Below are positions 25,018 through 30,109 of a stretch of 64,000 nt of DNA, in pieces. This DNA comes from a virus. Position 1 is the stretch's first letter; every line of letters starts with the position of its first letter. The position numbers and the translations under genes were made by a program. The notes under the pieces are model-generated. The model was not told where the DNA came from. It searched no databases and worked only from the letters and a program-made list of their open reading frames with translations. The stretch lies in the IMG/VR virus record IMGVR_UViG_3300009347_000008; one strand, given 5' to 3'.

Positions 25018-26481
25018 ATGAAAGACTTTTTAAATTTGAAACAGGGTGAAGTTGGAATCGAATGTCGCTTCGCAACGTACGTCAAATCACCCCAACCCGA
25101 GTTGCCGGATTTACATCTTGTAAAAGAGCAAGTACATAAGGATGACGGTACAATTGTACCAACCGTAAAGCCTGTCTATAATTACGAACGACCTTATTGG
25201 ATTGTTAAAAAAGGTTGTCGTAATTTCAATCAGCCTAAAGAGTGGATTGAAAAAGAACGTGTCAATGAATTCTATTCGACACAAACAGACCTCCTATACA
25301 AGGCAGCATCGTCTCTAGGTAAACCATACTTTAAGAAGTCAATTAAAGACCTAGCAGCAGAGAGCCCGTATCTCTTTGGTATCGACATTAAGAGTACAGC
25401 AGTTATCAAGCAGGATTACATGGTTAAGTATCCTGATCTAAAGACTGAATATTCAGTAGGCGTGTTCGATACAGAAACTGATGTCATCCATGGGACTGAT
25501 GAAATTACCATGGCTACTTTTAGCTTTGGTAAGATTTGCTTCACAGCAGTACAGAAGAGTTTCTTCAAAGGTATTGCCAATCCAGAGCAAGAGGTTCTTG
25601 AAAAGACTAATAAGTATCTCGATCAATATATAACTAAGCGAGGTATCAAACCTGTATTAGTTATTGTGGACTCCGAGATCGATGTTCTAATTGAGACATT
25701 CAAAGTCATTCATGAAGCTAAGCCAGACTTTCTCTCTATCTGGAACATGAAGTTCGATATCGGTAAGATTCTAGAAGCTTGTGAACGTGCTAACTTCCCG
25801 ATTGAACATTTGATGTGTGATCCGTCTGTACCTAATGAGTACAGATCTTTCAAGTTTATTCTTGGCCCTAATCAAAAGAAGACTGCTAGTGGGTTGGTCA
25901 TGCCAATCAAACCAGCAGCGCAATGGCATACTGTCAAATGTCCTGCCTCCTTCTACGTGATCGACGCGATGTGTGCTTATAAACACACTCGTATGGGTGA
26001 ACAAGAAAAGAAGTCGTATAGCTTAGATTTCATTTTAGGTGAGGAGTTAAACTTAGGAAAGCTTAAGTTTGAAGAAGCCAATCATCTATCAGGTCTAGAT
26101 TGGCATAAATTTATGCAAGAGTTCTACCCTGTCGAATATGTAGTATATAACAGATTCGACTGTATTGGTATGGAACTACTTGAAGATAAAGTTAAAGACA
26201 TGCGAGTTGTGCTTCCGCAATTCTCTGGTTCTTCTGACTTTGAAGACTTTAAGTCTCAACCACGTCGTAAGATGGACGCTCTACATTGGTTCGTTCAGAA
26301 ACACGGCCGTGTAATGGGGTGTACTTCCTCAGCTTTGGTTGATGAAGAACTCGATCCAATGATCTTGGGGCGTGATGAATGGATTATTACTCTAGCTCCT
26401 TCACTTATTACGAGAGAAGGTCTACGAGTCATTGAGGAGAATCCAGAACAAGTTACAACGATCTATGGTCACGTTGGAGAT
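25018..26481 (+). CDS. Family-B DNA polymerase, exon 1: N-terminal domain plus 3'-5' exonuclease domain. The terminal stop codon of the ORF is probably intronic.
   Basis: Exo I-like FDTETD, Exo II-like WNMKFDIGKIL (NxxxFD) and Exo III-like YVVYNRFDCIGMELL (YxxxD). The ORF ends ~95 aa after Exo III, exactly where polymerase motif A is expected. Confidence 0.65.
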
Positions 26482-28166
26482 TAACTAAAGATACTGACAC
26501 GTCTATTATATGTTGTAGCTTATATAATAGGTTTAACGTGTTTACAAGAAAAGAACTTTACGTACCTTTTTCTGGAAGAAGATATATTATCACTAATACT
26601 GGTAAGATATTAGATTCTGAGAAGAAAGAAATTCCTGTTGAAATAATTGATAGGTCTATTTTTGTGGAAATTGATTGGTTACTTGGTAGGAGAAAATATC
26701 TCTTGTCTGTAATAGTAATGTTCACTTATGGATCTCTTAAAGTACCAGATCATCTACTAGACTTAGTAGAACCTCTTTACGTTGATGGTGATTTTAGAAA
26801 TTTAACACCCCAGAATCTTATCTATAGATTCAAAACCCCACTAGAAGTAGAAAACTATCCTGGTTTTTTCCTTATACCCTTTTATGTTAATTACGCTTTA
26901 AGTAAGAATGGCTCATTAATTAATATAGAAACTGGTAAGGAAAAACAATGGTCAGTAACATCAACTGAAAACAATAAAAAGAATCAAAAAGGTGGCTATT
27001 ACTTTAGCCGTGTACTTAATGATTTCGGTTTCAGTAAGTGTTTATTTCTACACAGAGCATTATGTTTAGTTTTCAAAGAGTACGATAACAAAGTCCAGTC
27101 ACTTGTGGTCAATCATAAGGATGGTAATCCATCTAATAACCACTTAGATAATATCGAATGGTCTACTTATAAAGAAAATAATAATCACGCTATTGCCATG
27201 GGTCTTAGATCAGATAATAAACCTATCTTATCGAAGAACATTAAAACTGGTGAGATCATGAAATTCTCCAGTATTAATGAATGTGGAAGGTATTACAATG
27301 CTCCTAGAGCAGGTTTTATCCAACATAGGTTGAAGAAATCTGGCAATAAAATATATTCGGATTATTTATTATTTAAGTATGACGACGGGACAGAGTGGCC
27401 ATCGATAGACCTTAATAAAGTCGAAATTATCCGAGGCGGCAGAAGTGACTTAATCAAAGCTAGAAATGTCTTTACTGGTGATGTTATTTTATTCTTAGGT
27501 GCTGAAAAAGGCTCTCACTTAACAGGTGTTAAAAAAGCTACTATTTTAAATCACGTAAAAAAAGGACACTTGATACCTTGTAAAGGTTGGAATTTTAAAT
27601 GGGACAACGACGAGACTCCGTGGCCTAACCACACACATCGTCATTTGAAAGTCTATGAAAAATTCCCAATCTTTCCTCCCACTGGTGCAATTATTTTTGA
27701 TACGGAATTAAACGAGGAGCTTTTCTTTGAGAGTGTAGCTTTAGCGTGTAATTTCTTAAATATCACTAAACATGTTTTTAGTGATTACGCTAAATCAAAA
27801 ACTTTATTAAAGAAAAGATATTCGCTTACGTATTTTCATCTTGTGAAAAGTCTAGGTCTCCCTACAGAGTAATCTGTAGTAAAAAACTATGTGAATTGAC
27901 TGGAACAAGCTTAGAGCCTCATACACTCCCTACTCCAGTAATGAGAGTAGTACAGTAAAAGAGATGAGGATTGTTTAACCAGCAGCCAAGCTTCCTGACC
28001 AACGACGTGAGTCGCCGTCAGGGTGAAGGTTCAGAGACTACATACCACAAGTGTGGTTAGCGCATAGCCCCATTATTCAATGGGTGAAGATATAGTCCGA
28101 TCTATAAGGAAACCTTATAGCGGGTGCCATAGCGTACCGGCTTAGTCTAACGAACTAAGTGGACAG
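26482..28166 (+). mobile_element. Group I intron (~1.7 kb) in the DNA polymerase gene, carrying an HNH endonuclease ORF; boundaries approximate
   Basis: Canonical P7 elements: R = GGTTCAGAGACTACA (28026-28040) and S = GAAGATATAGTCC (28088-28100), with the P7 pairing GACTA/TAGTC. A P9 hairpin TATAAGG-aaa-CCTTATA follows. The intron ends with G28166, directly before an in-frame exon whose first residues are KLDVSASYPN (polymerase motif A). Confidence 0.6.
26538..27872 (+). CDS. Intron-encoded HNH homing endonuclease (444 aa; GTG start)
   Basis: HNH core VVNHKDGNPSNNHLDNIEWSTYKENNNHA; located inside the group I intron. Confidence 0.7.
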   Translation: MFTRKELYVPFSGRRYIITNTGKILDSEKKEIPVEIIDRSIFVEIDWLLGRRKYLLSVIVMFTYGSLKVPDHLLDLVEPLYVDGDFRNLTPQNLIYRFKTPLEVENYPGFFLIPFYVNYALSKNGSLINIETGKEKQWSVTSTENNKKNQKGGYYFSRVLNDFGFSKCLFLHRALCLVFKEYDNKVQSLVVNHKDGNPSNNHLDNIEWSTYKENNNHAIAMGLRSDNKPILSKNIKTGEIMKFSSINECGRYYNAPRAGFIQHRLKKSGNKIYSDYLLFKYDDGTEWPSIDLNKVEIIRGGRSDLIKARNVFTGDVILFLGAEKGSHLTGVKKATILNHVKKGHLIPCKGWNFKWDNDETPWPNHTHRHLKVYEKFPIFPPTGAIIFDTELNEELFFESVALACNFLNITKHVFSDYAKSKTLLKKRYSLTYFHLVKSLGLPTE

Positions 28167-28384
28167 AAGTTAGACGTTAGTGCTAGTTATCCTAATGGAG
28201 AGACGTGTTTCAACATTAGTAAAGAGACCACAGTGCGTGAACTATCTACTATTGATGGTATTCCCGAAGCTGTGTTCAGAAAACAGAACATGGGGATCAG
28301 TGCTGGTCATGTAAATGCACTCGATTACTGTTCTACAATGTTGGGCTTCCCAACACTATTTGAACTGGAAGAAATGACATGGTA
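28167..28384 (+). CDS. DNA polymerase B exon 2 (72 codons) containing polymerase motif A; the frame terminates at TAA 28382-28384
   Basis: KLDVSASYPNGETCFNISKETTV resembles the T4/RB69 polymerase segment [20 protein letters not shown] (recalled from memory). The frame is continuous with exon 1 once the intron is removed. Confidence 0.5.
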
Positions 28385-29222: not shown

Positions 29223-29652
29223 CTTGGGTCTTCAAGATTATCTTGACAAGTTCTATATCTTAAAAGATGCAGAACCTATTCGCTATGTGAAGCTGACTAA
29301 AATCCAACGAGTATGGCATTTCTTCTCTTACAATAGAGAAGCTTTGCTAACTCACTGGGGGAAGATTGTTCCTTACGTCACTCTTATTTATAACAATGTT
29401 CTTGCGATAAATATTCTATTTAAGCAAGCTAATGTTAACTCTAACCTCTTGGTGGCTAAGAGTATCGACAAACTAAGATTTTACAGAAGGAGGATTCTCT
29501 CAAACCGTTTGAATCTTGAATTAGGCATAAAGAAAATGTCTAGAAGACAAATCAATATCAAGATCAATCAGATTTATGACGATGCTTTGTCTTTTCAACT
29601 AATCGCGGATGATCTTTATAAGAGGATGCATAATGGGTTTTATTACCACTAG
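29161..29652 (+). CDS. Hypothetical protein (163 aa)
   Basis: ORF overlapping both neighbours, in a different frame. Confidence 0.4.
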   Translation: MISQSKAHKMAQLQREYPTYNLGLQDYLDKFYILKDAEPIRYVKLTKIQRVWHFFSYNREALLTHWGKIVPYVTLIYNNVLAINILFKQANVNSNLLVAKSIDKLRFYRRRILSNRLNLELGIKKMSRRQINIKINQIYDDALSFQLIADDLYKRMHNGFYYH

Positions 29653-30109
29653 ACGAATCATAAAAGCTTTGTCTAGTCTTGAGAAGGAAGTTAATCTGAT
29701 CGAAATAGATCTACTTACGTTTTTGAGCTACTTCAATAAAGATCCTAATACTTTCAGAGGTATAACGGATTTCTTCTATAGAGATAGAGCACTCAAAGAT
29801 AAACGCTTCTCAAGATTCGGCGAGGCAATAGCAACAAATGTACAATCAATTATACTTCATATGGAAAGAATGAAGCTAATACTTGATAAACAAAAACACA
29901 ATGGTTGTGCTCATACTTCCGAACTACGTAAACTAATAAATCTAAGAAAAGGGTTCTTAGATAGGAAGTGTGATGAGTTCCTAATTGCTGTTTATGATCT
30001 TCGTATTGAGGATATGGAGATTGATAAGACGCAATTAAAGTTCAGCATTGTTGATACATTAGAACGCCTTAAAATTGAGACTAGAAACTATTCTCTTAGA
30101 CTTCAATGA
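29609..30109 (+). CDS. Hypothetical protein (166 aa)
   Basis: ORF, followed by the terminator at 30121-30153. Confidence 0.4.
   Translation: MIFIRGCIMGFITTRRIIKALSSLEKEVNLIEIDLLTFLSYFNKDPNTFRGITDFFYRDRALKDKRFSRFGEAIATNVQSIILHMERMKLILDKQKHNGCAHTSELRKLINLRKGFLDRKCDEFLIAVYDLRIEDMEIDKTQLKFSIVDTLERLKIETRNYSLRLQ

Follow-up and report, generated by a model that had tools for sequence, protein, structure and literature searches.

The polymerase gene that ends soon after motif A in the window (the whole stretch of 64,000 nucleotides analysed here) is the complete first half of a two-gene polymerase, a state that is normal for phiKZ-like phages, and is not broken. The locus very probably encodes the entire N-terminal subunit of a two-subunit phiKZ-like ('group 1') family B DNA polymerase (PolB), and its gene is split by a putatively mobile group I intron with an HNH ORF (Table 1). 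The window derives from an uncultured phiKZ-like jumbo phage, as indicated by the phiKZ_IP head proteins that it encodes and by tblastn with exon 1, in which 298 phiKZ-like phage genomes were matched (best match Burkholderia phage FLC9, 47% identity). An earlier annotation made from the letters alone, called here the sequence-only reading, had described the gene as truncated or fragmented and had listed a decaying pseudogene, a split polymerase with its catalytic part encoded elsewhere and an unrecognised recoding or processing event, choosing none of the three. Its interpretation was partly supported, the second option being the one in agreement with the family-wide split of this polymerase.

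Table 1. Features of the polymerase locus, in window coordinates.
Feature	Position	Strand	Remarks
Exon 1, N-terminal/3'-5' exonuclease subunit of split family B DNA polymerase	25018..26481	+	Residues 1-488, ending …IYGHVGD
Group I intron, predicted self-splicing	26482..28169	+	Between the D488 and L489 codons, two codons 5' of the motif A aspartate
Intron HNH homing endonuclease ORF (predicted), 444 aa	26538..27872	+	5' of the ribozyme core
Internal guide sequence GUCUAG/GUCUCC	27850..27861	+	Pairing with both exon ends
Exon 2	28170..28385	+	Residues 489-559 (LDVSASYPNG…FELEEMTW) and TAA stop; motif A, natural C-terminus
ORF A, 119-aa small protein	28379..28738	+	Start codon shares bases with the polymerase stop
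ORF B, about 177 aa, ORFan	28689..29222	+	ATG 28689 after AGGAG
ORF C, 163 aa, small lineage-specific protein	29161..29652	+	GAGGA before ATG 29161
ORF D, 158 aa from ATG 29633 (166 aa from 29609), lineage-specific	29633..30109	+	GAGGA before ATG 29633
G+C-rich hairpin GGGAGTCC-CGAA-GGACTCCC	30127..30146	.	T-rich tails on both strands

The ORF that contains exon 1 (25018-26484, 488 aa) is closed by a TAA at 26482-84. The frame of exon 2 ends with the TAA at 28383-28385, 71 codons past the splice junction, which agrees with the distance of about 70 codons given before, whereas the coordinate then assigned to the stop (28382) was off by one. A profile search with the spliced exon 1+2 product, as proposed in the sequence-only reading, gave phrog_3011 with an E value of 3.6e-177, residues 12-556 of the 559 being aligned to profile positions 10-562 of 576. 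Database homologues of the N-subunit numbered 680, and the best 120 of these were 487-649 aa long, with no fusion to a catalytic domain among them. The orthologues that were aligned (565-651 aa) end after the same conserved block, and those of FLC9 and RP12 align to 28170-28373 of the window. The closest intron-less relatives of the spliced product (75-84% identity) have their C-terminus at the same residue (…ELDEMTW): P0003, P0004, P0006 and P0007 end at or a few residues from …EMTW, P0002 shows the same end region plus a short tail, and in P0009 and P0011, which are more distant, the end comes one residue earlier. In the alignments, the N-subunit ends about 65-70 residues past motif A, without motif B or C. 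Being full length against phrog_3011 and sharing its end with the intron-less relatives, the gene does not match its earlier description as truncated or fragmented. The same upstream neighbours, a 431-aa phrog_2767 gene and an opposite-strand 426-aa gene, are kept in four relatives (L007, L008, L094 and L095). Opposite-strand genes were also observed upstream of the N-subunit gene in FLC9 and RP12, a likeness by position.

The intron was matched by Rfam RF00028 at 27826-28120 over the full model (1-253), with 66.5 bits against a gathering score of 50. The U at 26481 precedes the 5' splice site and the G at 28169 is the last intron base. The internal guide sequence pairs at six of six bases both with the 3' end of exon 1 (GGAGAU; P1, with a U·G at the splice site) and with the 5' end of exon 2 (UUAGAC; P10). 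The gene is uninterrupted in P0002, P0003, P0004, P0006 and P0007 and interrupted in P0001, P0005, P0008 and P0010, and in the intron-less alleles, at 75-84% identity, the reading frame runs continuously across the junction. The RF00028 match, the P1/P10 pairing and this continuity confirm the splice junction as it had been assigned from sequence. The intron ORF matched Pfam HNH_3 (26.2 bits, cut-off 24.8) and PHROG 59 'HNH endonuclease' (E 5.8e-26) and shares 32% identity with the intron ORF of the relative L011. Introns in close relatives occupy two or three different positions, all within six codons of motif A. Since intron-less alleles exist in close relatives, the intron was regarded as a putative mobile group I element with a predicted HNH homing endonuclease.

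The Exo I, II and III motifs (D151/E153, N243/D247 and Y377/D381) vary little or not at all across the alignments, and the proofreading 3'-5' exonuclease of the 559-aa product is predicted to be intact. The AlphaFold model was confident for residues 1-445, and the top Foldseek matches of the model were the N-terminal and exonuclease domains of RB69 gp43 (E 1e-13, about 457 aligned columns). For residues 448-559, around motif A, the model had low confidence, which would fit folding that depends on the partner subunit but does not in itself point to it. Motif A reads D488-L-D490-x4-Y495-P496, with D488 and D490 invariant across 56 N-subunits. Alignment to T4 gp43 by hhalign (E 1.2e-4, probability 56%) set GDLDVSASYPNGETCFNISKETT on motif A of T4 gp43, with D490 on the motif A aspartate, in support of the earlier motif A assignment, and placed the end of the N-subunit at about T4 gp43 residue 476.

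The catalytic half of the family is a separate protein of the phiKZ gp50 type, with motif B KxxNNSxSG and motif C SDTDS. These motifs were assigned by pattern and invariance, since the catalytic subunit is too divergent from T4 gp43 for a significant alignment (E 0.015). The catalytic subunit was found in 310 phage genomes, and its counts in the eight commonest genera equal those of the N-part; the two halves occur in essentially the same ~300 phage genomes. In 13 IMG/VR genomes of uncultured phages, both halves lie on one contig, about 26-39 kb apart, and none of 79 metagenomic catalytic loci had an N-part within 3 kb. In the literature, phiKZ gp50 adjoins gp49 (PMC7824862), the PolB of group 1 jumbo phages is described as having no exonuclease fused to it, the latter being encoded elsewhere (PMC7824862, section 3.4.1), and a 'split subunit DNA polymerase' of phiKZ is mentioned in PMC5105663 as identified in 2012 (citing Cornelissen et al., J Virol 86:1844).

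A profile HMM of the catalytic subunit (40 sequences, 707 positions) was run with filters off on every six-frame segment of the window, and the best match was only E = 1.7. The tblastn search of the window with a catalytic-subunit query gave no match, and no motif B or C sequence was present anywhere in the 64 kb, consistent with the earlier observation that neither motif C nor polymerase similarity appears downstream. The partner gene of this phage was not recovered: contigs extending the ends of the window added <2 kb, and none of the contigs returned by two collection scans came from the metagenome sample of the window (3300009351). As the partner gene usually lies about 26-39 kb away in relatives, its expected location in this genome is elsewhere, outside the window.

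A conserved acidic residue N-terminal to motif B is absent in 40 catalytic subunits, so the motif A aspartate would be found only on the N-terminal/exonuclease subunit, and this implies an active site of two chains. Motifs A, B and C are shared out between the two proteins in a complementary way, and a precedent exists in the split polymerase 43A/43B of Aeromonas phage 25, which co-purifies and is active (PMC2988022); both suggest that the two subunits associate physically into an active polymerase. The 'stand-alone exonuclease' subunit of the literature would carry the motif A catalytic aspartate, a reading that is more likely than the one in which ORF A acts as a third partner (see below); if true, the polymerase active site of all phiKZ-like phages consists of two chains.

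We propose self-splicing of the primary transcript, in which the guide sequence determines P1 and P10 and …HVGD becomes joined to LDVSASYPNG…. The 559-aa product would comprise the N-terminal domain, the 3'-5' proofreading exonuclease and the first palm segment with motif A, ending at the equivalent of the palm/fingers border of T4 gp43. The fingers (motif B), the remaining palm (motif C) and the thumb would be carried by a second protein of about 700-730 aa, of the phiKZ gp50 type, and the two proteins would associate into one active site, with the motif A aspartate from the product described here and the motif C aspartates from the other chain.

The start of ORF A is an ATG within ACATGGTAA; its −1 frame had been noticed in the sequence-only reading, and its codon-usage score is +0.30 in its own frame. 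Homologues of 119-123 aa with the same position and overlap are present in L095, L259 and L260 (30-40% identity), and the arrangement with its own ATG and a start/stop overlap is kept in four relatives, with an overlap of 7 nt in L095, as in the window, and of 10 nt in L259 and L260. ORF A is conserved only in the phage clade of the window, and it showed no match to Pfam, PHROG or the catalytic-subunit HMM. It contains RIYYNNCIGG, previously called at best weakly motif-B-like; this segment is not polymerase motif B but is conserved in a family of small proteins that is unrelated. The overlap of its start with the polymerase stop suggests translational coupling. That ORF A is a third, fast-evolving partner of the split polymerase, perhaps a lineage-specific accessory or regulatory subunit kept in fixed proportion to the N-subunit via termination-reinitiation, is conceivable but unlikely.

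ORFs B, C and D (28689-29222, 29161-29652 and 29609/29633-30109) are each shifted by +1 from the preceding ORF, and successive overlaps of ORFs A-D measure 50, 62 and 20-44 nt, in accordance with the overlapping, shifting frames described earlier. ORF B, which is absent from the JGI gene calls, has a positive coding score in its own frame only and no homologue in Pfam, PHROG or relative searches. Positive coding scores were also obtained for ORF C, with a partial homologue in L260_167 (E 2e-7), and for ORF D, with a homologue in L260_103 (42% identity over 83 aa, E 2e-20). ORFs A-D are small, fast-evolving phage genes of the polymerase transcription unit and not polymerase remnants. The hairpin behind them, with an 8-bp stem including 6 G-C pairs, was recovered on both strands by the terminator scan and is likely a bidirectional terminator that separates the polymerase/ORF A-D unit from convergent minus-strand genes.

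The same ORFs bear on the other explanations of the locus. A programmed −1 frameshift or a stop bypass at 28379-28385 would fuse ORF A to the subunit and give a longer product; the start of ORF A in the −1 frame overlaps the stop in an arrangement kept in four relatives, and some orthologues have 40-90 extra C-terminal residues, such as the longer tails of FLC9 and RP12. These tails, however, are acidic, of low complexity and without relation to ORF A. Upstream of the ATG, the −1 frame stays open over just 5 codons, with no X XXY YYZ slippery heptamer among them, and each of the four relatives has a separate ATG for ORF A. A stop/start overlap is moreover the usual mark of translational coupling, and the intron-less relatives have their stop at this same residue, which speaks against any unrecognised recoding or processing and makes the fusion very improbable. 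Decay of the gene, in which the catalytic half was lost and ORFs A-D are its frameshifted remains, is less probable still. The frame does end soon past motif A, and the four ORFs behind it overlap at length, each in a frame shifted from the last; their sum of about 600 aa is near the length of the catalytic subunit. Yet the gene has the full length seen in its family, shares the end residue of its relatives and keeps every invariant exonuclease and motif A residue intact, and the catalytic-subunit HMM was blank in ORFs A-D and the rest of the window. ORFs A, C and D also have homologues of their own in relatives with the same layout, and every one of the ORFs gives a positive coding signal in the frame that it occupies; coding scores ran from +0.26 to +0.33.

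Sequencing or assembly indels, raised by the sequence-only reading as a source of the apparent stop and the shifting frames in a window taken from metagenomic data, are the least probable cause. An independently assembled JGI contig, Ga0115924_1214870, covers window positions 15018-36484 (21.5 kb) with 6 substitutions and 0 indels and shows the same frames. In four further contigs, from different samples, the stop is at the same position and the ORF A start overlaps it in the same manner. An intein-split or trans-spliced polymerase was rejected, as no intein blocks occur at the break and the C-terminus is common to the whole family; Pfam scans of exon 1, the 50-aa exon-2 ORF (28233-28385) and ORF A detected no intein or Hint domain.

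For annotation, a phiKZ-like polymerase gene that ends after motif A is to be read as normal and not as a pseudogene. Automated callers break this gene at the intron, and the JGI annotation lists fragments of 488 aa and 50 aa. The locus adds an intron-bearing N-subunit allele from an uncultured lineage, and the variety of intron positions near motif A fits the recent interest in intron-encoded endonucleases as weapons that co-infecting jumbo phages use on each other (PMC11620839). A split polymerase is an idea known from the literature since 2012; with motif A on the exonuclease subunit and motifs B and C on gp50, a composite active site becomes directly testable.

Homology to the phiKZ-like split PolB (phrog_3011 N-subunits such as RP12 ORF251 and KEN49_CDS0329; phiKZ gp50) is end to end, with the same length class, C-terminal end point, exonuclease motifs and motif A block DLDxxxSYP, although the closest cultured relative, FLC9, is merely 47% identical. 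The intron with its HNH ORF in motif A distinguishes the window from the annotated cultured orthologues inspected (FLC9, RP12, phiKZ-type, AgentSmith and pEa_SNUABM_54), none of which has one. Archaeal split PolBs, namely PolB1/PolB2 of Methanothermobacter and the split-intein PolB of Nanoarchaeum, whose parts are rejoined by protein trans-splicing, likewise consist of two separately encoded parts, with different split points. In the T4-related Aeromonas phages 25, 44RR and Aeh1, gene 43 is split and a replicative family B polymerase is made as two polypeptides that have to reassemble, as stated in PMC2988022 on the authority of Petrov et al. 2006, and the same source places a mobile endonuclease gene at the split region, as here. 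The 43A and 43B cistrons are adjacent and their split is recent and sporadic, whereas the phiKZ-like genes lie tens of kb apart with a split fixed family-wide and, unlike in the T4-like pair, a highly divergent catalytic half. Group I introns with HNH ORFs in phage DNA polymerase genes include, among those named in PMC12908238, the ones of SPO1/SP82, Bastille (I-BasI) and Pf-WMP3 (I-PfoP3I), and an intron endonuclease is known from the RNA polymerase of PhiPA3 (PMC11620839). As in these phages, a group I ribozyme and an HNH ORF are inserted at catalytic-motif codons of an essential replication gene, and intron-plus and intron-minus alleles coexist among close relatives. The intron described here differs from them in its host gene, the N-subunit of a split PolB, and in the location of its ORF, which comes after the 5' splice site and before the guide sequence.

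In the window, the frame of the N-subunit gene (the N-terminal, 3'-5' exonuclease part of a split family B DNA polymerase) ends early past motif A and motifs B and C are absent, as the sequence-only reading had accurately observed; a decaying pseudogene, a multi-polypeptide split polymerase and an unrecognised recoding or processing event were the explanations it offered. The window is part of a phiKZ-like jumbo phage, because it holds several phiKZ_IP head proteins and exon 1 matched 298 phiKZ-like genomes and no other genomes. Against 50,697 phage records, megablast with the locus and with window positions 1-25000 gave no match; no cultured phage is closely related to this one.

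Compared with its family, the N-subunit gene is not truncated, its stop falling where the family normally stops. Five annotated orthologues, FLC9 gp346 (651 aa), RP12 ORF251 (627 aa), a phiKZ-type gene (638 aa), AgentSmith_21 (570 aa) and pEa_SNUABM_54_311 (565 aa), all reach their C-terminus soon after one shared conserved block, and the spliced product of 559 aa spans positions 10-562 of 576 in the PHROG family profile. The closest intron-less relatives in a 5.8-billion-protein collection (P0002, P0003, P0004, P0006 and P0007; 75-84% identity, 100% query coverage) carry an uninterrupted HVGD-LDVAASYPNG and finish at the same residue as the window product (…ELDEMTW, …EMIW). The best 120 matches in this collection were 487 to 649 aa long, none of them fused to a catalytic domain. 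Full length for the family and the end residue shared with intron-less relatives exclude the pseudogene, and the shared end residue likewise excludes recoding. An indel error, which the reading had proposed to check, was not found either: an independent JGI contig, L007 (Ga0115924_1214870), differed by six substitutions and zero indels over the region. The split polymerase was the correct option, as the catalytic half is a separate gene family-wide.

The splice junction proposed from the sequence was right, since the features of a group I intron fit there (see the table). The guide sequence forms six uninterrupted pairs with the start of exon 2 and six with the end of exon 1, a U·G pair lies at the 5' splice site, and the intron ends in a terminal G at 28169. 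Splicing is predicted to yield the junction …GUUGGAGAU joined to UUAGACGUU…. In the public annotation of L007, the N-subunit is entered as 488-aa and 50-aa genes and the intron ORF is called apart. Such gene calls are broken at the intron and leave the N-subunit gene truncated in databases; in the protein collection, several entries of 487-494 aa represent the same annotation artefact.

Features of the N-subunit locus and other elements of the window.
Feature	Position	Strand	Remarks
Exon 1 ORF	25018-26484		488 aa; TAA directly follows …IYGHVGD
HNH endonuclease ORF in intron	26538-27872		444 aa; Pfam HNH_3 over its cut-off; PHROG 59
Rfam group I match in the intron between exons 1 and 2	27826-28120		Rfam RF00028 match, full length, 66.5 bits (gathering score 50)
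Guide sequence	27850-27861		GUCUAG-GUCUCC, 12 nt
Exon 2	28170 to TAA 28383-28385		Other frame, LDVSASYPNG…; polymerase homology picks up again at 28170
Palm fragment with motif A	26359-26481 + 28170-28382		N-subunit residues 448-559
ORF A	28379-28738	+
ORF B	28689-29222	+
ORF C	29161-29652	+
ORF D	29633-30109	+	Alternative start 29609
Strong bidirectional hairpin	30127-30146		End of ORFs A-D unit
dCTP deaminase / 2OG-oxygenase / DHFR / ribonucleotide reductase block	30275-38388
Twister-sister ribozyme	46289-46367	-	Rfam RF02681, 41.9 bits (gathering score 34), E 6.8e-6
RP12 ORF252 homologue	47260-47733	-	39% identity, E 2e-31
Three clustered tRNA genes	50303-50374, 52019-52090, 52482-52566	-	Rfam RF00005, 54-65 bits

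Introns of close relatives occupy differing positions inside motif A: after D488 in the window (26482) and in P0008, after D490 in P0010, and after S494 in P0001/L011 (L011:4425-4446) and P0005, where exon 1 ends …GDLDVSAS. Intron-less alleles P0004 and P0006 read GGAGAYYTNGAYGT around the insertion site. Up to the junction, contig L011 and the window share 87.6% identity; as DNA the two introns are unrelated, and the ORF in the L011 intron has only 32% identity to the window HNH protein. From these alleles, motif A of the N-subunit gene looks like an intron insertion hot-spot.

The catalytic half was recognised in Bacillus phage AgentSmith, in which a second 'T4-like DNA polymerase' gene encodes 714 aa with motif B as KIRNNSLSG and motif C as SDTDS. 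Homologues of this protein occur in 310 phage genomes, with genus counts equal to those for the N-terminal part in the eight commonest genera; the phiKZ version is gp50, preceded by gp49 (AAL82950.1). Both halves occurred together on 13 IMG/VR contigs, approximately 26-39 kb apart, and the N-terminal part lay within 3 kb of the catalytic locus at 0 of 79 metagenomic catalytic loci. The search for a polymerase-domain ORF that the reading had called for found none within the 64-kb window, either by tblastn or by unfiltered HMM (40 sequences) in all frames (best E-value 1.7), which places the partner gene beyond these 64 kb. In IMG/VR, an exact-pattern scan did not turn up the locus. Scans with a catalytic-subunit alignment gave 79 loci in metagenome contigs and 80 in viral contigs, none from sample 3300009351, and contigs bearing the window-end genes lengthened the window by no more than about 20 nt and 1.9 kb; the phage's own partner gene was thus not recovered by tblastn, HMM, contig scans or window-end extension.

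Single-sequence phmmer of the N-subunit against the PDB gave no matches and a profile search gave marginal matches to the RB69 exonuclease region only; structure prediction was therefore used. The AlphaFold model was confident for residues 1-445 (mostly pLDDT >90), and this part overlays the RB69 gp43 N-terminal and exonuclease domains (Foldseek E 1e-13). The pLDDT fell to 30-65 over residues 448-559, as would be expected of, though is not proof of, a palm fragment needing its partner. A profile alignment to T4 gp43 (E 1.2e-4) placed GDLDVSASYPNGETCFNISKETT on the T4 motif A segment, so that D490 aligns with the catalytic aspartate of T4, and the N-subunit C-terminus near T4 residue 476, at about the palm/fingers border of gp43 structures. 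Alignment of the catalytic subunits to T4 gp43 with hhalign was too weak to locate the split from that side. Because D488, L489, D490, Y495 and P496 do not vary across 56 family members and none of 40 catalytic subunits has a conserved acidic residue before motif B, the motif A aspartate would sit only on the N-subunit and the active site would be assembled from two chains.

The region downstream is variable, and its ORFs A-D are small genes particular to the lineage rather than remains of the polymerase. Each has a positive codon-usage score in its own frame only, and a plausible ribosome-binding site precedes each of ORFs B, C and D. They had no Pfam or PHROG match, no tblastn match in phages, no match as a concatenated query against the 5.8-billion-protein database and no paralogy among the four; homologues emerged only from neighbouring genes on close relatives' contigs. 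The ORF A family (119-123 aa) occupies the identical position in L095 (4399-4758), L259 (4510-4875) and L260 (1797-2168), each time overlapping the polymerase stop codon, which suggests translational coupling to the N-subunit gene in all relatives that have it. ORF A identity in these contigs is 30-40% versus 75-79% for the N-subunit; the family is specific to the clade and evolves far faster than the N-subunit gene. RIYYNNCIGG, previously read as at best weakly motif-B-like, did not match the catalytic-subunit profile and is the conserved core L-x-L-I-R-I-Y/F-x-N-x-x-I/V-G of the ORF A family. Homologues of ORFs C and D are present in L260, and none of ORF B on the relatives' contigs; one frameshifted gene comprising ORFs B, C and D was rejected on the same overlapping layout in L260 and a second contig without indels. 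Contig L008 carries different small genes at this position.

In L008 (10-7296), the dCTP deaminase / 2OG-oxygenase / DHFR / ribonucleotide reductase block has the opposite orientation with respect to the polymerase gene, and the ribonucleotide reductase small-subunit gene appears as two ORFs (178 and 162 aa) versus one 335-aa ORF in the window. The RP12 ORF252 homologue lies 19 kb from the N-subunit gene, unlike in RP12, where ORF252 is directly 3' of it; the AgentSmith gene in that position is annotated as an AAA family ATPase.

Novelty is modest and consists of an uncultured lineage that shares no more than 47% identity with any cultured phage, an HNH-endonuclease intron within motif A of the N-subunit and a conserved small gene apparently coupled to that of the N-subunit. 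The split polymerase of phiKZ-like phages is an already known, family-wide feature. Iyer et al. (PMC7824862, section 3.4.1) described the 'divergent PolB' gene pair of group 1 jumbo phages as phiKZ gp49/gp50, noting that its exonuclease is not fused but encoded elsewhere, and Thomas et al. (PMC5105663) date recognition of the phiKZ 'split subunit DNA polymerase' to 2012. A functional precedent is Aeromonas phage 25, whose split 43A/43B polymerase co-purifies and is active (PMC2988022).
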